Shown here: piece by piece, positions 8,762 to 60,511 of the stretch
How positions within the stretch are numbered: the stretch's first letter is position 1
How the letters are laid out: each line of letters begins with the position of its first letter
Assembly (NCBI RefSeq): GCF_041886205.1
Contig: NZ_CP169029.1
Length of the DNA stretch: 64,000 nucleotides
From: Escherichia coli
Lineage (GTDB): Bacteria > Pseudomonadota > Gammaproteobacteria > Enterobacterales > Enterobacteriaceae
Direction: 5' to 3' (one strand)
Notes under the pieces: generated by a model
Told to the model about the DNA's origin: nothing
The model's database searches: none
What the model saw: the letters and a program-made list of their open reading frames with translations, nothing else
Made by a program: the position numbers and the translations under genes

Positions 8762-8935
8762 CCCGTAGGCCTGATAAGACGCGTTAAGCGTCGCATCAGG
8801 CATCGCTTGTCGGCTGCGGCGCGAGCGCCTTATCCGACCTACATTGGTGCTCCCCGTAGGCCTGATAAGACGCGTAAGCGTCGCATCAGGCTTCAATTGC
8901 CGGAGAAGGCGATAATGCCTTATCCGGTCTATAGT
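8762..8935. repeat. REP/BIME cluster in sucB-sucC intergenic region
   Basis: Multiple copies of the REP palindrome motif (gcctgataagacgcg...cgtcgcatcaggc; gccttatccg.cctac) seen directly. Confidence 0.7.
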
Positions 8936-13166: not shown

Positions 13167-13287
13167 CGCCTGATGCGCTGCGCTTATCAGGCCTACGGGT
13201 AATGGCTTGTAGGCCGGATAAGGCGTTCACGCCGCATCCGGCACTGGTTGCCTGATGCGACGCTTGCGCGTCTTATCAGGCCTACGG
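13167..13287. repeat. REP/BIME cluster in sdhB-sucA intergenic region
   Basis: REP palindrome motifs (gccggataaggcgttcacgccgcatccggc, cttatcaggcctac) seen directly. Confidence 0.7.
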
Positions 13288-14020: not shown

Positions 14021-15787
14021 TTAGTAAGTACGAATCTTCGGCGGGAATGCCGGGCGCAGTTTCGGTTCCATGTTGACGCTTCGGCGCGTCATGGATTCCG
14101 ACTCAGGCAGATACAGGGAGTGGCACAGCCAGTTTTCATCATCACGATCCGGGAAGTCGAAGCGGCTATGTGCGCCACGGCTTTCGGTACGGAAGTTGGC
14201 AGAAACAGCCGTTGCATACGCCGTTTCCATCAGGTTATCCAGTTCCAGGCACTCAACGCGCTGGGTGTTGAACTCGCTGGAAGTGTCATCCAGACGGGCA
14301 TTTTTCAGACGTTCGCGGATCACTTTCAACTGCTCAAGCCCTTTCGCCATCGCATCACCTTCACGGAAGACCGAGAAGTTATGCTGCATACATTCTTGCA
14401 GCGCTTTACGAATCGCCACCGGATCTTCACCGTTACGATTATTGTTCCAGCGGTTCAGACGATCCAGAGACGCTTCTACATCAGACTCGCTGGCATCGCG
14501 CAATGCGCCCTGCTCGGCGATAGACTCTTGCAGATGCAGACCTGCCGCACGACCAAAGACCACCAGGTCCAGCAGCGAGTTGCCGCCCAGACGGTTAGCG
14601 CCGTGTACCGATACACAAGCGATTTCACCAACGGCAAACAGCCCCGGAACAACCACATCTTCGCCTTTCTCGTTCACCGTCAGCGCCTGACCGGTCACTT
14701 TGGTCGGAATACCGCCCATCATGTAGTGACAGGTTGGGATAACCGGAATCGGCTCTTTCACCGGATCGACGTGAGCGAAGGTACGGGAGAGTTCCAGGAT
14801 ACCCGGCAGGCGGGATTCGAGAACTTCTTTACCCAGGTGGTCGAGTTTCAGTTTCGCGTGTGGCCCCCACGGACCATCACAGCCGCGACCTTCACGGATT
14901 TCGATCATGATGGAACGCGCCACCACATCACGGCCCGCCAGGTCTTTGGCGTTCGGCGCATAACGCTCCATAAAGCGTTCGCCATGTTTGTTCAGCAGAT
15001 AACCGCCTTCACCACGGCAACCTTCGGTGACCAGTACGCCCGCACCGGCAATACCGGTCGGGTGGAACTGCCACATTTCCATATCCTGCACCGGTACGCC
15101 TGCGCGGATAGCCATGCCGACGCCGTCGCCAGTGTTAATGTGGGCGTTAGTGGTGGACTGATAAATACGCCCTGCCCCGCCAGTCGCCAGCACGGTAGCG
15201 CGGGCTTTGAAATAAACCACTTCACCAGTTTCGATGCACAGTGCAGTACAACCCACCACCGCGCCATCCTGGTTCTTCACCAGATCCAGCGCATACCACT
15301 CGGAGAAAATGGTGGTGTGGTTTTTCAGGTTCTGCTGATAAAGCGTGTGCAACAGTGCGTGACCGGTACGGTCAGCCGCCGCCGCAGTGCGTGCCGCCTG
15401 CTCGCCGCCGAAGTTTTTCGACTGACCGCCAAACGGACGTTGATAGATACGACCATCATCAAGACGCGAGAACGGCAGGCCCATGTGTTCGAGTTCCAGA
15501 ATCGCTTCCGGCCCGGTTTTACACATATATTCAATCGCGTCCTGGTCACCGATATAGTCCGACCCTTTTACGGTGTCGTACATATGCCATTCCCAGTTAT
15601 CTTCATGGGTATTACCCAGCGCAACGGTAATGCCGCCTTGCGCAGAAACGGTATGGGAACGGGTCGGGAAGACTTTAGAGAGCAGCGCACAGGTCTGGCC
15701 GCTCTGGGAAATTTGCAGCGCCGCGCGCATACCTGCGCCGCCGGCACCAATCACAACTGCATCAAATTCTCTGACTGGCAATTTCAT
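14021..15787 (-). CDS. sdhA: Succinate dehydrogenase flavoprotein subunit
   Basis: ORF track gives 592 aa; start placed at internal Met ([27 protein letters not shown] Rossmann motif) giving 588 aa. Confidence 0.95.
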
Positions 15788-16134
15788 CACACACCCCACA
15801 CCACAACGAATCCATAAATCACGTAAACCACCAGTGCAACGACAATCACCAGTTGCAGCATCAGGCGCAAAGCCAGCGGTTTAACGTAGTCGGTCAACAC
15901 CTGCCACATGCCGATCCAGGCATGGATCAAGATAGAAAACAGCGCCAGCAGGGTGAACACTTTGGTAAACGCAGAGGCGAAGAAACCGATCCAGACTTCA
16001 TATGTCAGCTCGCCACTGGTAGCGAAAAAACCGACCATATAAATGATGTAGAGCGTCAGGACGATAGCGGTAGCGCGAACGAGGATGAAATCATGTACGC
16101 CATTGCGTCCTAATGCGGAGGCGTTGCTTACCAT
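15787..16134 (-). CDS. sdhD: Succinate dehydrogenase membrane anchor subunit
   Basis: 115-aa hydrophobic ORF directly upstream of sdhA. Confidence 0.95.
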
Positions 16135-16517
16135 ATGAGGACTCCTGCGAGAAGTGAAAGCACGACAGTAATAACAAAGGAGATTTTGGCGGAGCGTTTA
16201 CCCGCTTCGAATGTTTCTTCCAGATAGCCAAAATCCATCATCATGTGGCGAATACCTACGACGACGTGATACGCCAGAGCGGTAAGGATGCCCCACATGA
16301 TAAATTTGACGAAGAAGCTGCCCATAATCGCGGAAGCTTGCTCGAAACCTTCAGGGGAAGAGAGGCTGGTACCCAGAAGCCACAGCAGGATGCCCACTGC
16401 AACAAAGGTGATCACACCGGAAACGCGATGGAGAATGGACGCTATCGCCGTGATGGGGAACCGGATGGTCTGTAGGTCCAGATTAACAGGTCTTTGTTTT
16501 TTCACATTTCTTATCAT
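16128..16517 (-). CDS. sdhC: Succinate dehydrogenase cytochrome b556 subunit
   Basis: ORF track gives 134 aa; start placed at [15 protein letters not shown] (129 aa). Confidence 0.93.
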
Positions 16518-17225
16518 GAATAACGCCCACATGCTGTTCTTATTATTCCCTGGGGACTACGGGCACAGAGGTTAACTTTCTGTTACCTGGAGACGTCGGG
16601 ATTTCCTTCCTCCGGTCTGCTTGCGGGTCAGACAGCGTCCTTTCTATAACTGCGCGTCATGCAAAACACTGCTTCCAGATGCGAAAACGACACGTTACAA
16701 CGCTGGGTGGCTCGGGATTGCAGGGTGTTCCGGAGACCTGGCGGCAGTATAGGCCGTTCACAAAATCATTACAATTAACCTACATATAGTTTGTCGGGTT
16801 TTATCCTGAACAGTGATCCAGGTCACGATAACAACATTTATTTAATTTTTAATCATCTAATTTGACAATCATTCAACAAAGTTGTTACAAACATTACCAG
16901 GAAAAGCATATAATGCGTAAAAGTTATGAAGTCGGTATTTCACCTAAGATTAACTTATGTAACAGTGTGGAAGTATTGACCAATTCATTCGGGACAGTTA
17001 TTAGTGGTAGACAAGTTTAATAATTCGGATTGCTAAGTACTTGATTCGCCATTTATTCGTCATCAATGGATCCTTTACCTGCAAGCGCCCAGAGCTCTGT
17101 ACCCAGGTTTTCCCCTCTTTCACAGAGCGGCGAGCCAAATAAAAAACGGGTAAAGCCAGGTTGATGTGCGAAGGCAAATTTAAGTTCCGGCAGTCTTACG
17201 CAATAAGGCGCTAAGGAGACCTTAA
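16518..17225. promoter_or_regulatory. Divergent gltA / sdhCDAB-sucABCD promoter-control region
   Basis: About 700 bp, AT-rich, no credible ORF, lying between divergently transcribed gltA and sdhC; this intergenic region is known to carry the promoters of both operons. Individual sites not resolved here. Confidence 0.6.
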
Positions 17226-21991: not shown

Positions 21992-22723
21992 ATGACATTT
22001 ATGAAAGGACTTTCCCTTTTGTTGTTGGTTGCCAGTCTGTGCAGCCACGCTGCACTACAACCCGATCGCACTCGTATTGTGTTCAACGCTAATGATAAAG
22101 CTACCAGTCTGCGAGTAGATAATCGTAGCGATAAACTCCCCTACCTCGCTTATTCCTGGCTCGAAAATGAAAAAGGGGAGAAAAGCGACGATCTTCTGGT
22201 CGCCCTGCCACCGATACAACGTCTGGAACCGAAAGCAACAACGCAGGTGCGGATAGTCAAGCAAGCGTCGACCGCGAAATTACCAGGCGATCGCGAAACG
22301 CTATTTTTCTACAATATACGTGAAGTTCCTCCCGCCCCGGAAAAAAACAGCGACCATGCCGTTTTGCAAGTCGCCATCCAGAGTCGTATCAAGGTGTTCT
22401 GGAGACCGTCCGCGTTACGCAAGAAAGCAGGAGAAAAGGTCGAACTGCAGCTGCAAGTCAGCCAGCAGGGCAACCAACTTAGCTTAAAAAACCCGACCGG
22501 TTATTATCTGACAATCGCCTACCTGGGCCGAAATGAGCAAGGCGTTCTCCCGGGTTTCAAAACTGTAATGATTGCGCCTTTTAGTACAGTCAGCACAAAC
22601 ACCGGAAGCTATAGCGGCAGCCAATTTTATCTCGGTTATATGGATGATTACGGCGCGTTACGCATGACAACGCTCAACTGCAGCGGACAATGCCGTTTAC
22701 AAGCAGTGGAGGCGAAGAAATGA
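21992..22723 (+). CDS. ybgP: Fimbrial periplasmic chaperone (PapD-like)
   Basis: About 243-aa ORF with signal peptide; start among three close ATGs is uncertain. Confidence 0.85.
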
Positions 22724-23932: not shown

Positions 23933-24979
23933 ATGCCAGTTTTGCAGTGGGGAATGTTATGTGTGCTATCACTTCTCCTTTCTATTGGTTTCCTCGCGGT
24001 ACATCTCCCGGCGGCGCTATTACTTGGGCCGATGATCGCCGGGATCATCTTCAGTATGCGCGGAATTACTCTGCAACTTCCCCGCTCCGCTTTTCTCGCC
24101 GCGCAGGCCATTCTTGGCTGCATGATTGCGCAAAACCTCACTGGTTCGATTCTCACCACGCTGGCCGCCAACTGGCCGATCGTGCTTGCTATTTTACTGG
24201 TGACGCTGCTTTCCAGCGCCATCGTGGGTTGGTTATTGGTGCGCTATAGCTCACTGCCTGGAAATACCGGTGCCTGGGGTTCTTCTCCAGGCGGCGCAGC
24301 GGCAATGGTCGCTATGGCGCAAGATTACGGCGCAGATATTCGCCTGGTTGCATTTATGCAATATCTGCGAGTGCTGTTCGTCGCGGGGGCCGCTGTTCTG
24401 GTCACCCGCATGATGCTGGGTGATAACGCTGAAGCGGTTAACCAGCAAATCGTCTGGTTCCCGCCAGTGAGCATTAATCTCCTGCTTACGATTTTGCTCG
24501 CAGTCGTTGCCGGTACGGCGGGATGCATGCTGCATCTTCCTTCCGGCACGATGCTCATCCCGATGCTGGCGGGCGCAGTGCTCCAGTCTGGTCAGCTCAT
24601 CACCATCGAACTACCGGAATGGCTGCTGGCGATGGCGTATATGGCAATTGGCTGGCGGATTGGTCTTGGTTTCGATAAACAAATCTTACTGCGGGCACTA
24701 CGCCCGCTACCGCAAATCCTGCTGTCGATTTTTGCTCTGCTGGCTATTTGTGCGGGTATGGCGTGGGGGCTGACCCGGTTTATGCACATTGATTTTATGA
24801 CTGCCTACCTCGCCACCAGTCCCGGCGGGCTTGATACCGTGGCGGTCATCGCCGCAGGGAGCAATGCCGATATGGCGCTTATTATGGCGATGCAAACCCT
24901 GCGCCTGTTCAGTATTTTGCTGACGGGGCCAGCCATTGCGCGGTTTATTTCAACCTATGCGCCGAAGCGGTCGGCCTAG
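23933..24979 (+). CDS. abrB: AbrB-family inner membrane protein (putative regulator of aidB; ybgN)
   Basis: Polytopic membrane ORF; start placed at [11 protein letters not shown] giving 348 aa. Confidence 0.8.
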
Positions 24980-25802: not shown

Positions 25803-26537
25803 TTATGCTGCGACAACAATCTCCTTTTCGGCAAATGTAGAGCGTAGTCGGCGGGCGAACGCCAGTGCGTGCTCGCCGTCGCCATGCAGGCAGACTGTTT
25901 GCGCCGTGACCGTTGCCCATTCGCCGGTGATACTTTTGACTCTGCCGTGTTGCACCATCTCTAGCGTTTGCGCCAGCGCCTGTTCTTCGTTTTCAATCAA
26001 CGCGCCTGGCTGACTTCGCGGCACCAGCGAGCCGTCAGCCTGATAACCGCGATCGGCAAACACTTCCTCGCGCGTTGTCAGGCCATATTGCTTGCCTGCA
26101 CGAATCAGCTCGCTTCCTGCCAGCCCAACGAGAATCAATGCCGGATCGCAAGCGTATACCGCTCTGGCGATGGCGTCTGCCAGTTGTGCTTCTTTCGCCG
26201 CCTGGTTGTACAACATGCCGTGCGGTTTGACATGACGCATTACGCCGCCTTGCGCACGGGCAATCGTTGCCAGCGCGCCAATTTGATACAGCGTCTGGGC
26301 GTAAACGGTTTCTGGCGGCAGCTGCATGGCGCTGCGACCAAAATTTTCCCTGTCGGGAAAACTCGGGTGAGCGCCAATCGCGACACCATTTTTTATTGCT
26401 TCACGCACGCAAGCCTGCATGGTTTGGGCATCGCCTGCATGAAATCCACAAGCAATATTGGCAGAGGAAACCAGCGTTAATAGCTCTGCGTCGCTGGCGC
26501 AGCCTTCGCCCAGATCGGCGTTCAGGTCAATTTTCAT
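25803..26537 (-). CDS. pxpA: 5-oxoprolinase subunit A (LamB/YcsF family)
   Basis: 244-aa [15 protein letters not shown]...; formerly ybgL. Confidence 0.9.
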
Positions 26538-27459
26538 TGTGCAGCCGCCACGCTAATTGTTCAAAATAACGTTGCTGATCTTGCCGCGCTTTCAGTGCCT
26601 CTTCCAGTGAACACTGGACAAAATGAATCGGCTGACCGAGCGGAATTTGCGCCAGATGGTACATATCAGCCTCAATGATACAGGCAATACGCGGGTAACC
26701 ACCGGTGGTCTGTGCGTCGTTCATCAACACAATCGGCTGCCCGTTATGTGGCACCTGCACCACGCCCGGTAACAAACCGTGAGATAACAGTTCGCGATCG
26801 GTGGTGCGTTTTAAAATTTGCCCCTGTAAGCGATAGCCCATGCGGTTACTTTGCGAGCTAAGCTGCCAGGGCGAACGCCAGAATGCATCCTGCGAGGCGC
26901 GATCGAACTCATGATATTCCGGCCCCGGCAAGGCGCGAATGCGGTTGCCCCACAGCAGCTGTTTAACGCCCTGCGCTTCCATAGAATCACGCTTCGATTT
27001 GCCAATCGGGAGTCGGTCACCATCCTTCAGTAAACGGCCTTCCAGCCCGCCAATCCCCACTTTGAGATCGGTGCTGCATGAGCCCATTACCGGCGGAACA
27101 TCAATACCACCCGCGACCGCCAGATAACTGCGCATCCCGTGCTGCGGGCGTTTAAGCGTTAAACGCTGGCCTGCTTTCATCGGCAATCGCCAGCCGGTCC
27201 AGACGGCATTATCATCCAGCCGCGCTTCGCAACCGGCCCCCGTCAGAGCAAACCACCCATCAGTTTCGAACTCAACCGTTAACTGACCGAGCGTGATCTC
27301 CAGCGCGGGGGCATTGGCGTCATTACCCACCAGCAGGTTAGAAATGCGCAGCGCAGGCATATCCAGTGCGCCGCAGTGGCTGATACCCGACTGGCGAAAA
27401 CCGTGACGACCGCCATCCTGCACAGTGGTATACATGCCCGCACGAATAATCTTCAGCAT
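26527..27459 (-). CDS. pxpC: 5-oxoprolinase subunit C (allophanate hydrolase subunit 2-like)
   Basis: 310-aa ORF; formerly ybgK; overlaps pxpA and pxpB. Confidence 0.9.
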
Positions 27460-28109
27460 ACACCCTCCTTCTGCGGTACAAAGCGCACGCTGTCTCCCGG
27501 ACGTAATAAGATGGGTTCGTCACGCGCCGGATCAAACAGGCTGAGTGAGGTATGACCAATCAACTGCCAGCCACCCGGCGTTGCCAGCGGATAAACACCA
27601 GTCTGCGGCCCGCCGATCCCGACAGAACCTGCCGGAACGAGCAAGCGCGGTTCAGCGCGCCGTGGCGTGTGTAGTTGTTCCGGCAAACTCCCGAGATACG
27701 GGAAGCCCGGTTGAAAACCTAAAAACCAGACCACGTATTCCACGAAGGAGTGCAATTCAACAACCTGTTTTTCGCTCAACCCGCAATGCGCCGCGACCAC
27801 CGCCAAATCCGGTCCGCCTGCACCACCGTAAACCACCGGAATTTCAATAAAGCGAGACTCAGGTTCCAGGGCCTCGCTCTCCTCCCACCAGCGTTGCAAA
27901 CGCTCTATGGCATCCAGCGCCAGCGACTCAGGATTACGCAAAATCACCGTGATATTGTTCATGCCGGGAATGGCTTCAACCACATTCGGCATATCCACCA
28001 GACGCTGCGCCAGTCGCCAGATCCGTTTCTGGCTAGCCAGCGTCACCGGCGGTTCCAGTTCCAGCACTACCGCCGTTTCACCTATCAGATAACAACGCGC
28101 TCGTTGCAC
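27453..28109 (-). CDS. pxpB: 5-oxoprolinase subunit B (allophanate hydrolase subunit 1-like)
   Basis: 218-aa ORF; formerly ybgJ. Confidence 0.9.
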
Positions 28110-30639: not shown

Positions 30640-30776
30640 GATGCCTGATGCGACGCTTGACGCGTCTTATCAGGCCTACGTATTTCCTGCAATTTATTGA
30701 ATTTGCACAAATTTGTAGGCTGGATAAGGCGTTCACGCCGCATCCGGCATCTGGGCTCGATTGCCTGACGCGTCTG
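30640..30776. repeat. REP/BIME cluster between convergent dtpD and phr
   Basis: REP motifs (tgcctgatgcgacgc...cgtcttatcaggcctac; gccggatgcggcgtgaacgccttatcc on the opposite strand) seen directly. Confidence 0.7.
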
Positions 30777-32195
30777 TTATTTCCCCTTCCGCGCCGCCTC
30801 ATACGCTGCCAACGTTTGTACTCTCGCTTCTTTGTGCTCGACTATCGGTTGCGGATAATCCAGCGTCACACCTGCTTTCTGCGCCCACTTCCACGGCTCA
30901 TGCACCACTTTCCCTGGCACATCGCGCAGTTCCGGTAGCCACTGGCGGATAAACTCGCCCTCATGGTCAAATTTCTCGCCCTGAGTTATCGGATTGAAAA
31001 TACGAAAATACGGCGCAGCATCAGTACCCGTAGAAGCCGCCCACTGCCAGCCACCGTTATTAGCTGCCAAATCACCATCAATCAGCTGCGACATGAAATA
31101 TCGCTCGCCTTCGCGCCAGTCGATCAATAAATCTTTCACCAGAAAACTGGCTGTAATCATCCGTAGCCGGTTATGCATCCAGCCAGTGCTGTTAAGCTGA
31201 CGCATGGCAGCATCGACAATCGGGTATCCCGTTTTGCCTTCCTGCCAGGCCTGTAAATGTGCGGGATTGCTCTGCCACTGCACACGATCCGTCCAGGCAA
31301 TAAACGGACAATGTTTACACAACGAGGGGTAATACGTCATCAGATGACGGTAGAACTCGCGCCAGATCAGCTCACTAAGCCAGACACTACCGGCCCCACC
31401 GTCCAGCGCCTGCGGCTGTTCCGCCAACAAGCGATGCAAACACTGGCGAGGCGATAACCCGCCCGTTGCCAGGCTGGCGGACAAACGACTGGTGCCTTCC
31501 ACTGCCGGAAAATCTCGTTGTTGCTCATATTCTCCGGCACCGTTCTGGCAAAACTGGCGTAATTGCGCAATCGCCGCTTTTTCTTCCACCGGGAAATGCG
31601 CAGTATCGAAAGACTGACGAGGATAATTCAGCGTAATGGATGGCGCGGGCTTTATCGATCCGCTACTACGAACTTTTGGTGCAGCGACGCACTCCGGCAT
31701 CCCTTCCCGCAGCCGTTTCAGCCAGGCATTCTTAAAAGGCGTAAAGACTTTGCACATTTCGTGATTGCCGGTCATCACCGCCCCCGGCGGCAGGATCACA
31801 CTGTCATCAAATCCTTCACACACCACGTTACGCAGCGCTCTTTCAACTTCCACATCCCGCGCCCGCTCATTCACTTCATACTGATAGTTATAAAACAGGT
31901 GGGTAACGCTGTTTTCCGCGCACACCTGTTTAACTATTTCGACACTGGCGACAAAGTCATCCACTTCACGGAACAATAAAGGAATACCTTTTTCCGCAAG
32001 CGCTATTTGTAGCCCATTCAGTTGAGCATTGATAAGTTCAGCCTGACGCGGCGACATGTTATGCGTCGCCCACTGGCGTGGTGTAGCGATATACAACGCC
32101 AGCACGCGTGCAGACGAATTGCGGCAGGCGGCAGCCAGTGCGAGATTATCGTGCAGACGTAAATCCTGGCGAAACCAGACCAGATGGGTAGTCAT
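30777..32195 (-). CDS. phr: Deoxyribodipyrimidine photolyase
   Basis: 472-aa ORF, MTTHLVWFRQDLRLHDNLALAAA... photolyase/cryptochrome family. Confidence 0.95.
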   Translation of the reverse strand: MTTHLVWFRQDLRLHDNLALAAACRNSSARVLALYIATPRQWATHNMSPRQAELINAQLNGLQIALAEKGIPLLFREVDDFVASVEIVKQVCAENSVTHLFYNYQYEVNERARDVEVERALRNVVCEGFDDSVILPPGAVMTGNHEMCKVFTPFKNAWLKRLREGMPECVAAPKVRSSGSIKPAPSITLNYPRQSFDTAHFPVEEKAAIAQLRQFCQNGAGEYEQQRDFPAVEGTSRLSASLATGGLSPRQCLHRLLAEQPQALDGGAGSVWLSELIWREFYRHLMTYYPSLCKHCPFIAWTDRVQWQSNPAHLQAWQEGKTGYPIVDAAMRQLNSTGWMHNRLRMITASFLVKDLLIDWREGERYFMSQLIDGDLAANNGGWQWAASTGTDAAPYFRIFNPITQGEKFDHEGEFIRQWLPELRDVPGKVVHEPWKWAQKAGVTLDYPQPIVEHKEARVQTLAAYEAARKGK

Positions 32196-32701: not shown

Positions 32702-32802
32702 TACTGCTCCTGAACGGTTTACAGGAGTAAGTGTAGACGGCGAAAAGAAAAAAACCGCCAGCATCTCCACTAGCGGTTTTCAATGTATTCAAAACTCAGC
32801 AA

Positions 32803-33009
32803 TCAATAAAAATCACCAGTTGCCTTTTCGGCCTGATCCATCCACACCGGTTTATCGCTGGTTTTCGACCAGACGCGATGCAGGTAGCTGTAAAAGCGGG
32901 CGCGGTCTTTCCAGAAAAGCATGAAAGGCAGCGCCAGAACGCCCGCTGCAACCGCATAAGTACGGCGTAAAAAGATAAGCCATGCAGGATATTCTCTGTA
33001 GAGTTCCAT
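32803..33009 (-). CDS. ybfA: Small DUF2517-type protein YbfA
   Basis: 68-aa [37 protein letters not shown]..., adjacent and divergent to kdpF. Confidence 0.75.
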
Positions 33010-33218
33010 ACTTTTCTCCCCCTTTTGTATCTACCCGGTGAATGGCACCGGAAAAATGAATTTGTTTATCTGATGAAAATAGTACCGCCTTTTGTGTAAT
33101 TTTACTACTCATCCGACCACTTATTTTTGCTTATTGATGGTTTATTTACATTCATCCTGTAATTAAGTTACACAAAAGTTAAATTAATACTAAACATTAG
33201 TTAAATCATGGCTTTTGC

Positions 33219-33248
33219 CATTTTTATACTTTTTTTACACCCCGCCCG
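33219..33248 (+). promoter_or_regulatory. KdpE response-regulator binding site of the kdpFABC promoter
   Basis: Sequence catttttatactttttttacaccccgcccg about 75-100 bp upstream of kdpF matches the KdpE operator as I recall it; imperfect direct repeat of T-rich half-sites seen directly. Confidence 0.6.
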
Positions 33249-33321
33249 CAGATTTTTGCGAAATCTTTGCAGCCAGAATTCTACCCTTCCGGTATCACTT
33301 TTAGGCCACTGGAGGTGCACT

Positions 33322-33411
33322 GTGAGTGCAGGCGTGATAACCGGCGTATTGCTGGTGTTTTTATTACTGGGTTATCTGGTTTATGCCCTGATCAATGCGG
33401 AGGCGTTCTGA
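33322..33411 (+). CDS. kdpF: K+-transporting ATPase small subunit KdpF
   Basis: 29-aa hydrophobic peptide (GTG start) [28 protein letters not shown]; stop overlaps kdpA ATG by 1 nt. Confidence 0.85.
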
Positions 33412-35084
33412 TGGCTGCGCAAGGGTTCTTACTGATCGCCACGTTTTTACTGGTGTTAATGGTGCTGGCGCGTCCTTTAGGCAGCGGGCTGGCGCGGCTG
33501 ATTAATGACATTCCTCTTCCCGGTACAACGGGCGTTGAGCGCGTACTTTTTCGCGCACTTGGCGTCTCTGACCGTGAGATGAACTGGAAGCAATATCTCT
33601 GTGCCATTCTCGGCCTGAACATGCTGGGGCTGGCGGTGCTGTTTTTTATGTTGCTCGGTCAGCACTATCTGCCGCTTAATCCACAGCAGTTGCCGGGGCT
33701 GTCGTGGGATCTGGCGCTGAATACCGCCGTCAGCTTTGTCACGAATACCAACTGGCAATCTTACAGCGGTGAAACCACGTTGAGCTATTTCAGCCAGATG
33801 GCTGGCTTAACGGTGCAAAACTTTCTTTCTGCCGCCAGCGGGATTGCGGTGATTTTTGCCCTCATCCGTGCGTTTACCCGCCAGAGCATGAGCACACTCG
33901 GGAATGCCTGGGTCGATCTGCTACGCATCACGTTATGGGTGCTCGTCCCTGTGGCGTTGTTGATCGCACTGTTTTTTATTCAACAAGGTGCGCTGCAAAA
34001 CTTTCAGCCTTATCAGGCTGTGAATACCGTTGAAGGAGCGCAACAGCTGTTACCCATGGGGCCTGTAGCTTCTCAGGAAGCGATCAAGATGCTCGGTACT
34101 AACGGCGGTGGCTTCTTTAATGCCAACTCGTCGCATCCGTTTGAAAACCCAACCGCACTGACCAACTTCGTGCAGATGCTGGCGATCTTCTTGATCCCAA
34201 CGGCGCTGTGCTTTGCCTTTGGTGAAGTGACGGGCGATCGCCGCCAGGGGCGCATGTTGCTGTGGGCGATGTCAGTGATTTTTGTCATCTGCGTAGGCGT
34301 GGTGATGTGGGCAGAAGTTCAGGGTAATCCTCATCTGCTGGCGCTCGGCGCAGACAGCAGCATCAATATGGAAGGTAAAGAGAGCCGTTTCGGCGTGCTG
34401 GTCAGTAGCCTGTTTGCGGTCGTGACTACGGCGGCTTCCTGTGGCGCGGTGATTGCGATGCATGATTCGTTTACCGCTCTCGGTGGCATGGTGCCGATGT
34501 GGCTGATGCAAATTGGTGAAGTGGTGTTCGGCGGTGTCGGTTCTGGTCTTTACGGCATGATGCTGTTTGTCCTGCTGGCGGTGTTTATTGCCGGGCTGAT
34601 GATTGGTCGTACACCGGAATATCTGGGTAAAAAAATCGACGTACGTGAGATGAAACTGACTGCACTGGCGATTCTGGTCACCCCGACGCTGGTGCTGATG
34701 GGCGCGGCGCTGGCAATGATGACCGACGCCGGACGTAGCGCCATGCTCAACCCTGGCCCGCATGGTTTTAGCGAAGTGCTGTACGCCGTGTCATCCGCCG
34801 CTAACAACAACGGCAGCGCCTTTGCCGGATTAAGCGCCAACTCTCCGTTCTGGAACTGTTTACTGGCGTTCTGCATGTTTGTCGGTCGCTTCGGGGTGAT
34901 TATCCCGGTGATGGCAATTGCCGGTTCGCTGGTGAGTAAAAAGAGCCAACCCGCCAGCTCCGGCACGCTGCCAACGCACGGCCCGCTGTTTGTTGGCCTG
35001 TTAATCGGCACCGTGTTGCTGGTTGGCGCACTGACCTTTATCCCTGCCCTGGCGCTTGGTCCGGTGGCGGAATATCTCTCCTGA
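33411..35084 (+). CDS. kdpA: K+-transporting ATPase subunit A
   Basis: 557 aa from [25 protein letters not shown]; the ORF-track N-terminal extension is rejected. Confidence 0.95.
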
Positions 35085-35106
35085 TGATATTGAGTGAGCA
35101 CTGAAT

Positions 35107-37155
35107 ATGAGTCGTAAACAACTGGCGCTATTCGAACCAACACTTGTCGTTCAGGCGCTGAAAGAAGCGGTGAAAAAATTAAACCCGCAGGCGCAATGGC
35201 GCAATCCGGTGATGTTTATCGTCTGGATCGGCAGTCTGCTGACCACCTGTATTAGCATCGCGATGGCAAGCGGTGCGATGCCCGGCAATGCGCTGTTTAG
35301 CGCGGCCATTAGCGGTTGGCTGTGGATCACCGTACTGTTCGCTAATTTCGCCGAGGCGCTGGCAGAAGGCCGCAGTAAAGCGCAGGCCAACAGTCTTAAA
35401 GGGGTGAAAAAAACTGCCTTTGCCCGCAAGCTGCGTGAGCCGAAATATGGCGCTGCGGCGGACAAAGTTCCTGCCGATCAACTGCGTAAAGGTGACATCG
35501 TGCTGGTAGAAGCTGGCGATATTATCCCCTGCGATGGTGAAGTCATTGAAGGCGGCGCATCGGTCGATGAAAGCGCCATCACCGGGGAATCGGCACCGGT
35601 GATCCGTGAATCCGGCGGCGATTTTGCCTCCGTCACCGGCGGTACGCGTATTCTTTCTGACTGGCTGGTGATTGAGTGTAGCGTTAACCCCGGAGAGACA
35701 TTTCTGGATCGGATGATCGCGATGGTGGAAGGCGCGCAGCGACGTAAAACGCCGAACGAGATTGCCCTGACCATCCTGCTGATTGCCCTGACTATCGTCT
35801 TTTTACTGGCAACCGCCACGCTGTGGCCGTTTTCCGCGTGGGGCGGTAATGCAGTCAGCGTAACGGTACTGGTGGCGCTGCTGGTCTGTCTGATCCCAAC
35901 CACTATTGGCGGCCTGTTGTCAGCGATCGGCGTCGCCGGGATGAGTCGGATGCTGGGCGCAAATGTGATTGCCACCAGCGGACGTGCAGTTGAAGCGGCA
36001 GGTGACGTTGACGTTCTGCTTCTGGATAAAACCGGCACCATCACACTCGGTAACCGTCAGGCGTCGGCGTTTATCCCCACGCAGGGCGTGGATGAAAAAA
36101 CGCTGGCTGACGCCGCACAACTGGCTTCGCTGGCTGATGAAACGCCGGAAGGCCGCAGTATTGTGATCCTCGCCAAGCAACGTTTTAACCTGCGCGAGCG
36201 CGATGTGCAGTCGCTCCATGCCACCTTTGTACCGTTTACTGCGCAAAGCCGGATGAGCGGGATCAACATCGACAACCGCATGATCCGTAAAGGTTCTGTC
36301 GATGCCATTCGTCGCCATGTTGAGGCTAACGGTGGTCACTTCCCTACCGATGTTGATCAAAAAGTCGATCAGGTTGCGCGTCAGGGAGCCACGCCGCTGG
36401 TGGTGGTGGAAGGTTCTCGTGTGCTGGGCGTTATTGCGCTGAAAGATATCGTCAAAGGCGGTATTAAAGAGCGCTTCGCCCAGCTGCGCAAAATGGGCAT
36501 TAAAACGGTGATGATTACCGGCGATAACCGTCTGACTGCCGCCGCGATTGCTGCGGAAGCGGGTGTCGATGATTTTCTCGCCGAAGCGACACCGGAGGCC
36601 AAGCTGGCATTGATCCGTCAGTATCAGGCGGAAGGTCGTTTGGTAGCGATGACCGGCGACGGCACCAACGATGCTCCGGCGCTGGCGCAGGCAGATGTCG
36701 CGGTGGCGATGAACTCCGGCACCCAGGCGGCGAAAGAGGCGGGCAATATGGTCGATCTCGACTCTAACCCGACCAAGTTGATCGAGGTGGTGCACATTGG
36801 CAAACAGATGCTGATGACCCGTGGCTCGCTGACCACCTTCAGCATTGCCAACGATGTGGCGAAATACTTCGCCATTATTCCGGCGGCATTCGCGGCAACG
36901 TATCCACAGTTAAATGCGCTGAACATCATGCGCCTGCATTCGCCCGACTCCGCCATTCTCAGTGCGGTGATTTTCAACGCCTTGATTATCGTCTTTTTGA
37001 TTCCCCTGGCGTTAAAAGGCGTGAGTTATAAACCGCTTACCGCTTCTGCCATGTTGCGCCGTAACTTATGGGTTTACGGTCTGGGTGGGCTGCTGGTGCC
37101 GTTTATTGGTATCAAAGTCATTGATTTACTGCTGACCGTTTGCGGTCTGGTGTGA
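35107..37155 (+). CDS. kdpB: K+-transporting P-type ATPase subunit B
   Basis: 682-aa ORF with P-type ATPase motifs ([19 protein letters not shown]). Confidence 0.97.
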
Positions 37156-37163
37156 GGTTTACC

Positions 37164-37736
37164 ATGCGTGGATTACGTCCGGCATTATCGACATTTATCT
37201 TTCTGTTATTGATTACTGGCGGCGTTTACCCGCTGCTGACCACCGTGCTGGGGCAATGGTGGTTTCCCTGGCAGGCCAATGGTTCGTTGATTCGTGAAGG
37301 TGATACGGTGCGCGGTTCGGCATTAATCGGGCAGAATTTTACCGGCAACGGCTATTTTCATGGTCGCCCGTCGGCAACGGCAGAAATGCCCTATAATCCA
37401 CAGGCTTCTGGCGGGAGCAATCTGGCGGTCAGTAACCCTGAGCTGGATAAACTAATAGCCGCACGCGTTGCTGCATTACGGGCCGCTAACCCGGATGCCA
37501 GCACGAGCGTTCCGGTTGAACTGGTGACGGCATCGGCAAGCGGGCTGGACAACAATATCACCCCGCAAGCGGCGGTCTGGCAAATCCCACGCGTGGCGAA
37601 AGCGCGTAATCTCAGCGTTGAACAGCTCACGCAACTGATCGCAAAATACAGCCAACAACCGCTGGTGAAATATATCGGCCAGCCGGTCGTCAACATTGTT
37701 GAACTCAATCTGGCGCTGGATAAACTTGATGAATAA
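37164..37736 (+). CDS. kdpC: K+-transporting ATPase subunit C
   Basis: 190 aa from [25 protein letters not shown]. Confidence 0.93.
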
Positions 37737-40413
37737 CGAACCCTTACGTCCCGACCCCGATCGTCTGCTGGAACAAACTGCCGCGCCGCATCGGGGGAAG
37801 CTGAAAGTTTTCTTCGGTGCCTGTGCAGGCGTCGGGAAGACCTGGGCGATGCTGGCAGAAGCCCAGCGACTGCGGGCGCAAGGGCTGGATATTGTGGTTG
37901 GCGTGGTAGAAACCCATGGGCGGAAAGATACCGCCGCCATGCTTGAAGGGCTGGCTGTTCTGCCGCCCAAACGCCAGGCGTACCGTGGGCGGCATATCAG
38001 CGAGTTTGATCTCGATGCCGCCCTCGCCCGCCGTCCGGCGCTGATCTTAATGGACGAACTGGCGCACAGTAATGCGCCAGGTTCTCGTCATCCTAAACGC
38101 TGGCAGGATATCGAAGAACTGCTGGAAGCTGGCATTGATGTTTTCACAACCGTCAACGTTCAGCATCTGGAAAGTCTGAATGATGTGGTCAGCGGCGTCA
38201 CCGGAATTCAGGTACGGGAAACCGTGCCCGATCCTTTTTTCGATGCCGCCGACGACGTAGTGCTGGTGGACTTGCCCCCGGACGATCTGCGCCAGCGGCT
38301 GAAAGAAGGCAAAGTCTATATTGCCGGGCAGGCGGAGCGCGCCATTGAACATTTTTTCCGCAAAGGCAATCTGATCGCCCTGCGTGAACTGGCACTGCGC
38401 CGTACTGCCGATCGCGTAGATGAGCAAATGCGCGCCTGGCGGGGGCATCCTGGTGAAGAGAAAGTGTGGCACACGCGCGACGCGATCCTTTTATGCATCG
38501 GGCATAACACCGGCAGTGAGAAACTGGTCCGCGCGGCGGCGCGGTTGGCCTCGCGCCTGGGTAGCGTCTGGCACGCGGTGTATGTTGAAACCCCTGCCCT
38601 GCATCGCTTACCGGAAAAAAAACGTCGGGCAATTCTCAGCGCCTTACGTCTGGCGCAGGAGCTGGGCGCGGAGACGGCAACACTTTCTGATCCAGCGGAA
38701 GAGAAAGCGGTAGTCCGTTATGCCCGTGAACATAATCTCGGCAAGATTATTCTCGGTCGCCCAGCCTCGCGCCGCTGGTGGCGTCGGGAAACGTTTGCTG
38801 ACCGACTGGCGCGCATCGCCCCCGATCTCGATCAGGTGCTGGTCGCGCTTGATGAACCACCCGCCCGCACGATTAACAACGCGCCGGATAGCCGCTCTTT
38901 TAAAGACAAGTGGCGGGTACAGATTCAGGGATGCGTGGTTGCCGCCGCGTTATGCGCCGTTATCACCTTAATTGCCATGCAGTGGCTGATGGCGTTTGAT
39001 GCCGCCAACCTGGTGATGCTGTATCTGCTTGGCGTGGTGGTAGTGGCGCTATTTTATGGACGCTGGCCTTCGGTGGTTGCTACCGTCATTAATGTGGTGA
39101 GTTTCGATCTCTTTTTTATCGCCCCACGCGGCACGCTCGCCGTCTCTGATGTGCAATATCTGCTGACCTTCGCGGTGATGTTAACCGTCGGGCTGGTGAT
39201 CGGGAACCTTACTGCTGGCGTGCGTTATCAGGCGCGGGTAGCCCGTTACCGCGAGCAACGCACACGGCACTTATATGAAATGTCGAAAGCTCTGGCGGTG
39301 GGCCGCAGTCCGCAGGACATCGCCGCCACCAGCGAACAATTTATTGCCTCCACGTTTCATGCCCGCAGTCAGGTGTTGTTGCCCGATGACAACGGTAAAT
39401 TGCAGCCGTTAACACATCCGCAAGGAATGACGCCGTGGGACGATGCCATCGCGCAGTGGAGTTTTGATAAAGGCCTGCCTGCGGGTGCGGGCACCGACAC
39501 GTTACCCGGTGTACCGTACCAAATTTTGCCGTTAAAAAGCGGCGAGAAAACCTACGGACTGGTGGTGGTGGAACCGGGGAATCTGCGTCAGTTGATGATC
39601 CCGGAGCAGCAGCGCCTGCTGGAGACGTTTACGCTGTTAGTCGCCAATGCGCTTGAGCGGCTGACGCTGACCGCCAGCGAAGAACAGGCGCGGATGGCAA
39701 GCGAACGTGAACAGATCCGCAACGCCCTGCTGGCGGCGCTTTCGCATGATTTACGCACTCCGCTTACGGTGCTGTTTGGTCAGGCAGAAATCTTAACGCT
39801 CGATCTGGCAAGCGAAGGATCACCCCACGCCCGCCAGGCCAGCGAGATTCGTCAGCATGTGCTGAACACTACCCGACTGGTGAATAATCTACTGGATATG
39901 GCGCGAATTCAGTCCGGCGGCTTTAATTTGAAGAAAGAGTGGTTAACGCTGGAAGAAGTAGTCGGCAGCGCGCTGCAAATGCTGGAACCGGGTTTATCGT
40001 CGCCCATCAATCTTTCTCTGCCAGAACCGCTGACCTTAATCCACGTTGACGGGCCACTCTTTGAACGGGTGCTGATTAATCTGCTGGAGAACGCGGTGAA
40101 ATATGCGGGTGCGCAGGCCGAAATTGGTATCGATGCCCACGTTGAGGGCGAAAATCTACAACTGGATGTCTGGGATAACGGGCCCGGTCTTCCGCCAGGC
40201 CAGGAGCAGACGATATTTGATAAGTTTGCTCGCGGGAATAAAGAGTCGGCAGTACCGGGGGTAGGGCTTGGACTGGCAATTTGTCGGGCGATAGTGGATG
40301 TACACGGGGGCACTATTACCGCGTTCAACCGACCGGAAGGTGGTGCCTGTTTTCGTGTTACACTTCCCCAGCAAACTGCCCCTGAACTTGAAGAATTTCA
40401 TGAGGATATGTGA
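37729..40413 (+). CDS. kdpD: Sensor histidine kinase KdpD
   Basis: 894 aa from [16 protein letters not shown]; N-terminal KdpD domain with Walker A (GACAGVGKT), four TM segments, HisKA (LSHDLRTPL) and HATPase domains. Confidence 0.95.
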
Positions 40414-41087
40414 CAAACGTTCTGATTGTTGAAGATGAACAGGCTATTCGTCGCTTTCTGCGCACGGCGCTGGAGGGCGACGGTATGCGCGTCTTTGAGG
40501 CCGAAACGCTGCAACGCGGCTTGCTGGAAGCGGCAACCCGTAAGCCAGATTTGATTATTCTCGATCTCGGCCTGCCCGATGGTGATGGGATTGAGTTTAT
40601 CCGCGACCTGCGCCAGTGGAGCGCGGTGCCGGTGATAGTGCTTTCCGCACGCAGCGAAGAGAGCGACAAAATCGCCGCGCTGGATGCCGGAGCGGATGAT
40701 TATCTGAGTAAGCCGTTTGGCATTGGCGAATTGCAGGCCCGTCTGCGCGTCGCATTACGCCGCCATTCAGCCACTGCCGCGCCCGATCCGGTAGTGAAAT
40801 TTTCCGATGTTACCGTCGATTTAGCCGCCCGCGTGATTCACCGGGGTGAGGAAGAGGTGCATCTCACCCCGATTGAATTCCGCCTGCTGGCGGTGCTGCT
40901 CAACAATGCCGGAAAAGTGCTCACCCAGCGCCAGCTTCTTAACCAGGTGTGGGGGCCAAACGCGGTCGAACACAGTCATTATTTGCGTATTTATATGGGA
41001 CATCTGCGACAAAAACTGGAACAGGATCCCGCTCGCCCCCGCCATTTCATTACTGAAACCGGTATTGGGTATCGGTTTATGCTTTAG
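40410..41087 (+). CDS. kdpE: OmpR-family response regulator KdpE
   Basis: 225-aa ORF (GTG start) [17 protein letters not shown]...; 4-bp overlap with kdpD. Confidence 0.95.
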   Translation: MTNVLIVEDEQAIRRFLRTALEGDGMRVFEAETLQRGLLEAATRKPDLIILDLGLPDGDGIEFIRDLRQWSAVPVIVLSARSEESDKIAALDAGADDYLSKPFGIGELQARLRVALRRHSATAAPDPVVKFSDVTVDLAARVIHRGEEEVHLTPIEFRLLAVLLNNAGKVLTQRQLLNQVWGPNAVEHSHYLRIYMGHLRQKLEQDPARPRHFITETGIGYRFML

Positions 41088-41099
41088 GCGGTTGAATTA

Positions 41100-41182
41100 C
41101 CGGATGCGGCGTATACGCTTTATATGGCCTACGTAATGCTCCCGTAGGCATGATAAAACGCGCTAGCGTCGCATCAGGCATT
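41100..41182. repeat. REP-like palindromic element(s) between kdpE and ybfP
   Basis: cggatgcggcgtatacgc..., cccgtaggcatgataaaacgcgctagcgtcgcatcaggca seen directly. Confidence 0.55.
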
Positions 41183-41201
41183 GGCACTCATATCGAAATG
41201 T

Positions 41202-41696
41202 TTAATGCGTATTTATCGCTTTCAACTCTTGCTGGCATTTTTCTGACTGACAGCGTCGCAACTCAATAATCCCGACATGCATCATCGAGCCAAAAAATCC
41301 GCTTTCGCTGACATAATCATCATTAACTATCGGTCGAGTGCCGGGCTTACCCTGGCAAATCCTCATAAAAAATGAGGTGTAGCACTGCCAGCCGAGATTT
41401 AAACTGGTCTTTTCTTGTGCTGACATATCGTGAAGATAAGTATGTTCTTTTTCGTTCCCGCCTGACAACTGCCAACGTCGGGTATTATCAGGTAAGTTAT
41501 CGCCAAGGCAATTTGTCTTACACCGGGAAGGCGCAATATTTACTGCAATGCTACCCGTTAATCCTCTGTTTTTATCTTTAGGGGTCAGTAACCAGTCACC
41601 AGCCAATGATGATTGTTCAGGTTGGGCGCATGCAGTCAGCAGTAATGTGGCGGTAATTAGTGACACTCTGACGACCAGACTCCCGTTGGTCTTCAT
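41202..41696 (-). CDS. ybfP: Lipoprotein YbfP
   Basis: 164-aa ORF with lipoprotein signal peptide (…LLLTAC). Confidence 0.8.
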   Translation of the reverse strand: MKTNGSLVVRVSLITATLLLTACAQPEQSSLAGDWLLTPKDKNRGLTGSIAVNIAPSRCKTNCLGDNLPDNTRRWQLSGGNEKEHTYLHDMSAQEKTSLNLGWQCYTSFFMRICQGKPGTRPIVNDDYVSESGFFGSMMHVGIIELRRCQSEKCQQELKAINTH

Positions 41697-41741: not shown

Positions 41742-41850
41742 TTTTTGCCGGATGCGGCGTGAACGCCTTATCCGGCCTACAAAATCGCGCAAATTCAATA
41801 TATTGCACCATCTTTGTAGGCCTGATAAGCGTAGCGCATCAGGCAGTCAT
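41742..41850. repeat. REP/BIME cluster between pgm and ybfP
   Basis: gccggatgcggcgtgaacgccttatccggcctac ... gtaggcctgataagcgtagcgcatcaggc seen directly. Confidence 0.7.
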
Positions 41851-46372: not shown

Positions 46373-46459
46373 ATGATACGCATTATCTCAAGAGCAAATT
46401 CTGTCACTTCTTCTAATGAAGTGAACCGCTTAGTAACAGGACAGATTCCGCATGACTGA
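46373..46459 (+). CDS. uof: Upstream-of-fur leader peptide
   Basis: 28-aa ORF MIRIISRANSVTSSNEVNRLVTGQIPHD whose stop overlaps the fur start by 8 nt (translational coupling). Confidence 0.7.
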   Translation: MIRIISRANSVTSSNEVNRLVTGQIPHD

Positions 46460-59808: not shown

Positions 59809-59885
59809 GGCTACGTAGCTCAGTTGGTTAGAGCACATCACTCATAATGATGGGGTCACAGGTTCGAATCCCGTCGTAGCCACCA
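59809..59885 (+). tRNA. metT: tRNA-Met (elongator, anticodon CAU)
   Basis: 77-nt cloverleaf ending CCA; anticodon loop ctCATaa read directly. Confidence 0.95.
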
Positions 59886-59893
59886 TCTTTTTT

Positions 59894-59978
59894 GCGGGAG
59901 TGGCGAAATTGGTAGACGCACCAGATTTAGGTTCTGGCGCCGCAAGGTGTGCGAGTTCAAGTCTCGCCTCCCGCACCA
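59894..59978 (+). tRNA. leuW: tRNA-Leu (anticodon UAG)
   Basis: 85-nt class II tRNA with long variable arm, ending CCA; anticodon loop ttTAGgt. Confidence 0.95.
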
Positions 59979-60001
59979 TTCACCAGAAAGCGTTGTACGG
60001 A

Positions 60002-60076
60002 TGGGGTATCGCCAAGCGGTAAGGCACCGGTTTTTGATACCGGCATTCCCTGGTTCGAATCCAGGTACCCCAGCCA
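60002..60076 (+). tRNA. glnU: tRNA-Gln (anticodon UUG)
   Basis: 75-nt tRNA tggggtatcgccaagcggtaagg...cca; anticodon loop ttTTGat. Confidence 0.95.
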
Positions 60077-60110
60077 TCTTCTTCGAGTAAGCGGTTCACC
60101 GCCCGGTTAT

Positions 60111-60185
60111 TGGGGTATCGCCAAGCGGTAAGGCACCGGTTTTTGATACCGGCATTCCCTGGTTCGAATCCAGGTACCCCAGCCA
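60111..60185 (+). tRNA. glnW: tRNA-Gln (anticodon UUG), identical copy
   Basis: Identical to the glnU copy, including its 5' leader. Confidence 0.95.
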
Positions 60186-60200
60186 TCGAAGAAACAATCT

Positions 60201-60277
60201 GGCTACGTAGCTCAGTTGGTTAGAGCACATCACTCATAATGATGGGGTCACAGGTTCGAATCCCGTCGTAGCCACCA
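60201..60277 (+). tRNA. metU: tRNA-Met (elongator, anticodon CAU), second copy
   Basis: Identical to the metT copy. Confidence 0.95.
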
Positions 60278-60324
60278 AATTCTGAATGTGTCGAATATGT
60301 TCGGCAAATTCAAAACCAATTTGT

Positions 60325-60399
60325 TGGGGTATCGCCAAGCGGTAAGGCACCGGATTCTGATTCCGGCATTCCGAGGTTCGAATCCTCGTACCCCAGCCA
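60325..60399 (+). tRNA. glnV: tRNA-Gln (anticodon CUG)
   Basis: 75-nt tRNA; anticodon loop ttCTGat. Confidence 0.95.
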
Positions 60400-60436
60400 A
60401 TTTATTCAAGACGCTTACCTTGTAAGTGCACCCAGT

Positions 60437-60511
60437 TGGGGTATCGCCAAGCGGTAAGGCACCGGATTCTGATTCCGGCATTCCGAGGTTCGAATCCTCG
60501 TACCCCAGCCA
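60437..60511 (+). tRNA. glnX: tRNA-Gln (anticodon CUG), identical copy
   Basis: Identical to the glnV copy. Confidence 0.95.

Follow-up and report, generated by a model that had tools for sequence, protein, structure and literature searches.

Stop/start overlaps in the kdp cluster and other operons of an Escherichia coli genome segment: familiar junctions, unevenly suited to translational coupling

In described termination-reinitiation systems (Huber et al. 2019, 2023; Brown & Wade 2025), co-directional genes meet at junctions of the NTGA or TGATG/TAATG type, the upstream gene contains a ribosome-binding motif, and the two products frequently belong to one complex. Translation is coupled only where genes overlap or are very close to each other, and the overlapping arrangement is overrepresented among subunits of heteromeric complexes (PMC10666635). 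Coupling is most efficient for stop/start spacings of -4 to +3 and is lower at spacings of -7, -8, and -11 (PMC12548453). The need for a ribosome-binding motif encoded upstream differs between coupled pairs (PMC6728339). Here, we compare these systems with the kdpFABCDE cluster and other operons present in a window of 64,000 nucleotides (nt) from E. coli (NCBI RefSeq assembly GCF_041886205.1, contig NZ_CP169029.1). The window contains 11 same-strand overlaps, which are likewise co-directional stop/start junctions, most of them with a recognizable ribosome-binding motif. The differences are that three of them (-7, -7, and -11) lie outside the enriched spacing classes and that most of the downstream genes also initiate alone. 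None of the pairs of the window was among those tested experimentally in the reports on termination-reinitiation.

Direct reading of the junctions and comparison with RefSeq showed that the lengths and positions of the 11 same-strand overlaps and of one convergent overlap, all listed in an initial annotation made from the sequence alone, were correct. On the plus strand, kdpF and kdpA share 1 nt at position 33411 (TGATG), kdpC and kdpD share 8 nt at 37729-37736 (ATGAATAA), kdpD and kdpE share 4 nt at 40410-40413 (GTGA), ybgP and ybgO share 4 nt at 22720-22723 (ATGA), and uof, which comprises 28 codons, overlaps fur by 8 nt at 46452-46459 (ATGACTGA). On the minus strand, the overlaps involve sucC/sucD (1 nt at 7513, TAATG, with the ribosome-binding site GGAGGG), sdhC/sdhD (7 nt at 16128-16134, ATGGTAA), sdhD/sdhA (1 nt at 15787, TGATG), pxpB/pxpC (7 nt at 27453-27459, ATGCTGA, with the strong ribosome-binding site GAAGGAGGG), pxpC/pxpA (11 nt at 26527-26537, ATGAAAATTGA), and ybgA/phr (4 nt at 32192-32195, ATGA). 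Some of the minus-strand pairs had been given in plus-strand order, their lengths being right; transcription proceeds from pxpB to pxpC to pxpA and from ybgA to phr. The GTG start reported for kdpE was found in the sequence, as were GTG starts of kdpF and pxpB that had not been mentioned. Since the gene pairs are co-oriented neighbors in known operons, the overlaps do support the operon calls, short negative spacing being a classic operon signature. This does not extend to abrB and nei, which had been cited in the same context. Their convergent 3' ends overlap by 4 nt at 24976-24979 in the palindrome CTAG, which provides a TAG stop codon on each strand, and a convergent pair says nothing on operons or coupling.

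The junctions are ordinary, previously annotated stop/start overlaps within E. coli operons; they are already known and do not depart from known biology. The explanation that we favor, with a probability of roughly 75%, is that ribosomes can terminate and reinitiate at these ordinary operon overlaps, thereby tying the outputs of the partners together, with a strength that differs from one junction to the next. A ribosome ending translation of the upstream gene would sit within a few nt of the next start codon, and the final codons of that gene would often encode a ribosome-binding motif. The closeness of the terminating ribosome to the start codon, often together with such a motif, would make reinitiation possible. 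Termination-reinitiation would help to link the outputs of KdpF and KdpA, of SucC and SucD, of SdhC, SdhD, and SdhA, of PxpB, PxpC, and PxpA, and of KdpD and KdpE; these sets, which include most of the pairs of the window, fit the published requirement for overlap or closeness and the bias toward complex subunits. Most of the other downstream genes can also initiate on their own. We infer that translation is likely to be actually coupled for some of these pairs.

The spacings and motifs are unequal among the 11 junctions. Six have a spacing of -1 or -4, and five a spacing of -7, -8, or -11. The ribosome-binding motif located in the 3' end of the upstream gene is strong (-9 to -12 kcal/mol) for kdpA, sucD, pxpC, and ybgO, moderate for kdpE, sdhD, sdhA, and phr, and weak (-3 to -5 kcal/mol) for kdpD, fur, and pxpA. 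In comparison to K-12, the ybgP/ybgO junction (22705-22723) carries a 3-nt insertion, which adds a Lys codon to ybgP and shifts GGAGG from 3 to 6 nt upstream of the ATG of ybgO.

Overlaps were found for 11 of the 38 co-directional adjacent pairs of the window, or 11 of all 51 adjacent pairs, and approximately 15% of gene pairs overlap co-directionally in most prokaryotic groups (PMC6728339). Relative to this baseline, the enrichment was not significant when all pairs were considered (binomial P = 0.13), and the co-directional pairs were not clearly enriched for overlaps (P = 0.02-0.16, depending on the denominator and the baseline assumed). An enrichment special to this window was therefore rejected by the binomial comparison with published baselines. 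The classes -1, -4, and -8, which account for eight of the 11 overlaps, show genome-wide enrichment in all bacteria and archaea (PMC12548453). Thus, the pattern is non-random, but in the familiar genome-wide sense rather than as a peculiarity of the locus.

The six kdp genes are present in the order kdpF-A-B-C-D-E with products as named and intact reading frames, and the region is 100% identical to RefSeq records. The genes, their order, and the junction sequences are the same as in the kdpFABC-kdpDE cluster of E. coli K-12 (b4513 and b0698-b0694). Junctions were compared in 120 kdp loci of other species, which were retrieved with a single DNA pattern targeting the Walker-A motif of KdpD and called automatically (tblastn and nearest start codon), so that a few outliers may be call errors. 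Among the operons of the window, this comparison across species is confined to the kdp junctions. The comparative anatomy is new information. The three overlapping kdp junctions behave differently.

kdpF (33322-33411, plus strand, 29 residues) starts with a GTG codon located six nt downstream from GGAGG (33311-33315), and this GTG start is conserved in the Enterobacteriaceae (...TVSAGV...). At the kdpF/kdpA junction (33399-33413), a second GGAGG (33399-33403) lies in the Ala-Glu codons of kdpF and is followed by TGATG, the ATG of which starts kdpA (33411-35084, plus strand, 557 residues). Among 30 loci, the two genes were spaced by -1 in 16, by 0 in six, and by -4 in four, and 27 loci fell within -4 to +1. 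The ribosome-binding site of kdpA (GCGGAGG, region 33397-33411) is encoded by a conserved C-terminal motif of KdpF, N-A-E-x-F. The kdpF-to-kdpA arrangement is a conserved architecture that is probably under selection, and translational coupling is plausible at this junction. Upstream of kdpF, the direct repeats TTTATA-N5-TTTACA were read from the sequence at 33223-33239 (plus strand), with half-sites at 33223-33228 (TTTATA) and 33234-33239 (TTTACA); their sequences are those reported for the KdpE operator (PMC3264566). A longer version of kdpF, namely, the open reading frame of 67 residues at 33208-33411, was considered and rejected on the basis of this promoter geometry, as its ATG at 33208 lies upstream of the operator half-sites and would not be the kdpF start.

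The kdpD/kdpE junction (40402-40413, plus strand) is composed of GAGGA at 40402-40406, a 3-nt spacer, and the GTG at 40410-40412 that starts kdpE (40410-41087, plus strand, 225 residues, response regulator), with the kdpD stop codon TGA at 40411-40413. Of the 33 Enterobacterales loci, 27 have a spacing of -4. Of the 28 loci outside this order (proteobacteria and one planctomycete), eight share this spacing and four more have a spacing of -8. Within the Enterobacterales, GAGG(A)-N3-GTGA hardly varies, unlike the last kdpD codon (ATG, CTG, TTG, GCG, ACG, CCG, or CAG). GTG was the start codon of kdpE in 25 of the 27 Enterobacterales junctions with a -4 spacing. As for kdpF/kdpA, this organization is a conserved architecture that is probably under selection, and translational coupling is plausible. 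The ribosome-binding site GAGGA(T) encodes Glu-Asp near the C terminus of KdpD, and retention of these residues, like that of N-A-E-x-F in KdpF, may be due as much to the RNA signal as to the protein. The start codon of kdpE lies within ATGTGA (40408-40413), where, in the kdpD frame, the final codon ATG and the adjacent TGA make up a potential start-stop. In agreement with its start within an AUGUG/GUGUG motif, kdpE appears in a published table of E. coli AUGUG sites (with A at +4) as a gene starting at the 3' GUG, and no ambiguity of initiation is predicted for it (PMC9841429), because GAGG is spaced for the GUG. kdpE shares AUGUGA with the sites of that study, with the difference that the 5' AUG doubles here as the final sense codon of kdpD, a context outside the tests reported. 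The start-stop reinitiation model of that study could apply to kdpE.

The kdpC/kdpD junction is of another nature. Its spacing is variable, with gaps of 0 to 15 nt in most Enterobacterales and a kdpC stop codon often located within a TAAGGA ribosome-binding site, and the -8 overlap was confined to E. coli and Escherichia albertii among 104 loci. Alignment of positions 37684-37740 of the window with five of the loci (L022, L050, L116, L013, and L048) revealed that Escherichia has lost approximately 14 nt in comparison to Citrobacter, comprising the old kdpC stop codon, the spacer, and an AAAGGA site. This deletion joined the end of kdpC to the start of kdpD and provided KdpC with a new C terminus (...LDKLDE). 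The sequence comparison indicates that the -8 overlap is a derived state specific to Escherichia rather than a conserved coupling device. The match to a ribosome-binding site that is found upstream of kdpD, CTGGAT, is weak (-3.1 kcal/mol), in agreement with the absence of de novo initiation of kdpD in vitro (see below). The overlap, a by-product of this deletion, leaves kdpD with a poor independent start, and translational coupling of kdpC and kdpD in Escherichia is possible. kdpC (37164-37736, 190 residues) is separated by an 8-nt spacer from kdpB (35107-37155, 682 residues), which follows kdpA after a 22-nt spacer; kdpD (37729-40413, 894 residues) encodes the sensor kinase, all three genes being on the plus strand.

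Initiation in the absence of upstream translation was analyzed with the K-12 start-site data of INRI-seq Table S2, which also lists the in vivo Ribo-RET peaks of Meydan et al. In INRI-seq, the start region of each gene is an isolated fragment (-30 to +153) that lacks the start of the upstream gene, so that no ribosome is able to arrive from that gene. Seven of the 11 downstream genes (kdpE, sucD, sdhA, pxpC, pxpA, phr, and ybgO) initiate under such conditions, in line with the overall detection rate of the assay (70%), indicating that most downstream genes are capable of independent initiation. No de novo INRI-seq peak was detected for kdpA, kdpD, sdhD, and fur, although sdhD was still initiated in vivo. 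Dependence on translation of the upstream gene would account for the behavior of these four genes; however, 30% of all genes give no peak in the assay, which makes the absence of a peak weak evidence. The reading of the initial annotation was partly supported: the overlaps, the operon calls, and the start codons hold, whereas tight coupling had been asserted for a set of genes most of which initiate alone in vitro.

Independent initiation of the seven genes would also be expected if the overlaps were by-products of compaction and mutation (stop loss, small deletions, or start drift) that do not couple translation, each downstream gene using its own ribosome-binding site. A recognizable ribosome-binding motif at most junctions, the origin of the kdpC/kdpD overlap in a deletion found only in Escherichia, and the position of the -7 and -11 overlaps outside the enriched classes (PMC12548453) are all in keeping with this explanation, as is the bioBF pair, which overlaps by -4 and is not coupled (PMC6728339). 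However, bioBF was the only uncoupled pair among the five native E. coli pairs with a -4 spacing that have been tested, the other four being coupled (PMC6728339). In addition, by-products of compaction would not be expected to persist across genera as GAGG-N3-GTGA at kdpD/kdpE and GGAGG-N5-TGATG at kdpF/kdpA when the neighboring synonymous sites have diverged, nor would genes endowed with their own ribosome-binding sites be expected to fail to initiate alone in vitro, as observed for kdpA, kdpD, sdhD, and fur. Coupling and independent initiation are, moreover, not mutually exclusive. We consider it unlikely that the overlaps are by-products of compaction devoid of any coupling.

Termination-reinitiation nevertheless has to accommodate several unfavorable observations, which include independent initiation of the seven genes, the limited value of a missing peak, and the lack of coupling in bioBF. 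The kdpC/kdpD overlap, as judged from the alignments, is not conserved and is evolutionarily labile. Response regulators are generally produced in excess of their kinases, and kdpD/kdpE would therefore not be a simple 1:1 hand-over. Furthermore, kdpDE are reportedly also expressed from a weak promoter of their own inside kdpC, and coupling of kdpD to kdpC is impossible on such transcripts. Finally, no coupling experiment on any kdp junction was found in the accessible literature. A scan of positions 32900-41400 for promoters and terminators returned no more sites than shuffled sequence, with nothing useful inside kdpC and no promoter or terminator signal above chance inside the kdp cluster, and an Rfam scan detected no RNA family within the cluster. 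Upon induction, KdpE increases via a polycistronic kdpABCDE read-through transcript in E. coli (PMC5716572).

Masking of start codons by RNA structure was considered as a general explanation and set aside. Local RNA folding at 13 junctions revealed no structure beyond that of shuffled sequences, except at pxpB/pxpC, for which a stable hairpin (27435-27504, minus strand) is predicted to span the AUG and its ribosome-binding site (-27.5 kcal/mol; z = -2.5; equaled by 3 of 200 shuffles). Despite this predicted hairpin, the K-12 orthologue of pxpC (ybgK) initiates strongly in vitro and in vivo. Because structures at the kdp junctions were no stronger than those of shuffled sequences, coupling, if it occurs, would be likelier to involve a hand-over of ribosomes than the unmasking of a hidden start.

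Translation of fur is reportedly coupled to that of uof. This junction is the only listed one with direct, documented support for coupling in the literature, and the uof/fur junction of the window does not differ from the described leader-peptide system (Vecerek et al. 2007), with the same uof of 28 codons and the same 8-nt overlap. RyhB is cited as repressing translation of both uof and fur (Vecerek 2007, as cited in PMC6191717), fur being regulated through the action of RyhB on uof. At fur (start at 46452), the INRI-seq table lists an in-frame ATG inside the gene, at +135, in place of the annotated start, which is consistent with dependence of fur on uof. Coupling at the junctions other than those of kdp and uof/fur is unproven.

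The overlaps had also been presented as support for the chosen start codons. The starts agree with RefSeq and with independent evidence, but the argument drawn from the overlaps is partly circular, since the length of an overlap is set by the start that is chosen. Starts at upstream in-frame codons, which the initial annotation had considered as the competing possibility, are impossible for kdpE, sucD, sdhD, pxpC, pxpA, phr, and fur, as there is no in-frame ATG, GTG, or TTG between the preceding stop codon and the annotated start; for kdpE, only two open codons are present upstream. In the kdp loci of other species, the homologous start was ATG in 18 of 18 loci for kdpA (with an upstream in-frame start being impossible in 12 of the 18) and in 29 of 29 loci for kdpC. 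It was ATG or GTG in 48 of 75 loci for kdpD, 38 loci being devoid of an upstream in-frame start. Many of the relatives have an in-frame stop codon within five codons upstream of the homologous start.

Start-site peaks led to the same conclusion. The junction sequences of K-12 in the INRI-seq table are identical or nearly identical to those of the window, the kdpD and kdpE start regions being identical. Peaks were present at the annotated starts of nine genes, namely, kdpE (33-49 counts per million by INRI-seq), sucD (INRI-seq peak plus an in vivo Ribo-RET peak of 240), sdhA, sdhD (seen in vivo by Ribo-RET but not by INRI-seq), pxpC, pxpA (designated ybgL in the table; weak INRI-seq peak), phr, ybgO, and ybgA (INRI-seq peak), and also at the start of kdpB. 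kdpA, kdpD, and fur had no start peak in the INRI-seq or Ribo-RET tables, the kdp genes not being expressed under the in vivo conditions of the latter data.

The missing peaks of kdpA, kdpD, and fur could alternatively signal that some overlaps are annotation artifacts, the true start of the downstream gene being located upstream in frame or internally, with a different junction as the consequence. In-frame candidates exist for kdpA (GTG at -32 and TTG at -48), kdpD (TTG at -1, -10, and -11), sdhA (GTG at -1 and -4), ybgO (ATG at -10), and kdpE (ATG at +25). The two annotations available for sdhC also disagree, since the NCBI Prokaryotic Genome Annotation Pipeline (PGAP) places the start at 16532 on the minus strand (134 residues, ATGTGG...) and the K-12 annotation places it at 16517, five codons downstream (129 residues), although the sdhC start does not lie at any junction. 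The seven genes without an upstream alternative, the coincidence of peaks with annotated starts, the conservation of the homologous kdpA and kdpD starts with nearby in-frame stop codons in many relatives, and the well-spaced ribosome-binding motifs preceding the kdpF, kdpA, and kdpE starts as annotated make such artifacts highly improbable. The gene and start-codon calls for the window are sound, and they rest better on this independent evidence than on the overlaps.

The persistence of GUG at the kdpE start can be given a more specific reading. A G-to-A change at this position would be synonymous in most of the last kdpD codons that were seen and would give a stronger AUG, yet GUG was kept in 25 of the 27 junctions with a -4 spacing; in E. 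coli, the change would replace the C-terminal Met of KdpD by Ile. One could propose that the GUG is actively maintained in the Enterobacterales to set the kinase-to-regulator ratio, with KdpE tracking KdpD and KdpD depending on KdpC, a proposal that we regard as doubtful. If it were correct, the weak GUG would serve chiefly those ribosomes that terminate on kdpD, and KdpE output would thereby follow KdpD translation, and the AUGUGA form found in Escherichia and Citrobacter would add a start-stop trap. The kdpC/kdpD deletion of Escherichia would then make KdpD synthesis depend on KdpC translation, and the known positive feedback via kdpFABC read-through would gain a further level of control, at translation.

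The annotation of the window is based on the RefSeq coding sequences (PGAP) of strain XJ5.2, which were transferred to window coordinates, each reading frame being checked as intact. XJ5.2 is approximately 99.9% identical to the full window, save for a length difference of approximately 90 nt in the sucB-sucC spacer, which is longer in the window. The 8.5-kb kdp region was matched in 5,423 of 5,426 complete E. coli genomes, with 100% identity in a few, such as XJ5.2, and at least 80% of the region was present in 5,414 of the 5,426. The gene order is mngBA, mngR, sucABCD, sdhCDAB, gltA, ybgDQPO, abrB, nei, pxpABC, ybgI, dtpD, phr-ybgA, ybfA, kdpFABCDE, ybfP, pgm, seqA, ybfF, ybfE, fldA, uof-fur, chiPQ, glnS, nagE, nagBACD, asnB, a tRNA cluster, ubiF, and miaB. 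The cluster located between asnB and ubiF comprises seven tRNA genes (Met, Leu, Gln, Gln, Met, Gln, and Gln) at 59809-60508. Unlike K-12, this strain lacks speF-potE-ybfG/H between kdpE and ybfP (window positions 41088-41201) and the RhsC element (rhsC to ybfD) between ybfA and ybgA (32702-32802), the junctions being untouched in both cases. Contiguous kdpE-ybfP-pgm was found in 1,888 of the 5,426 complete genomes and contiguous ybgA-ybfA-kdpF in 1,310 of them. Repeats derived from repetitive extragenic palindromic (REP) elements, matching Rfam naRNA4 and ES036, are present at 8768-8839, 13212-13282, 30672-30714, and 41781-41823, in the sucB-sucC, sucA-sdhB, dtpD-phr, and ybfP-pgm spacers. Beside the latter repeat, a short stretch of the ybfP-pgm spacer (41746-41780) occurs in approximately 39 copies per E. 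coli genome.

Neither the conserved junctions nor the deletion scar alters the understanding of these systems. The value of the analysis is mainly that of a quality control, as gene and start calls were confirmed and the junctions obey the general rules of prokaryotic operons. The conserved kdpD/kdpE and kdpF/kdpA junctions and the recent deletion scar at kdpC/kdpD may be of interest for the regulation of Kdp and for the ratios of two-component partners.

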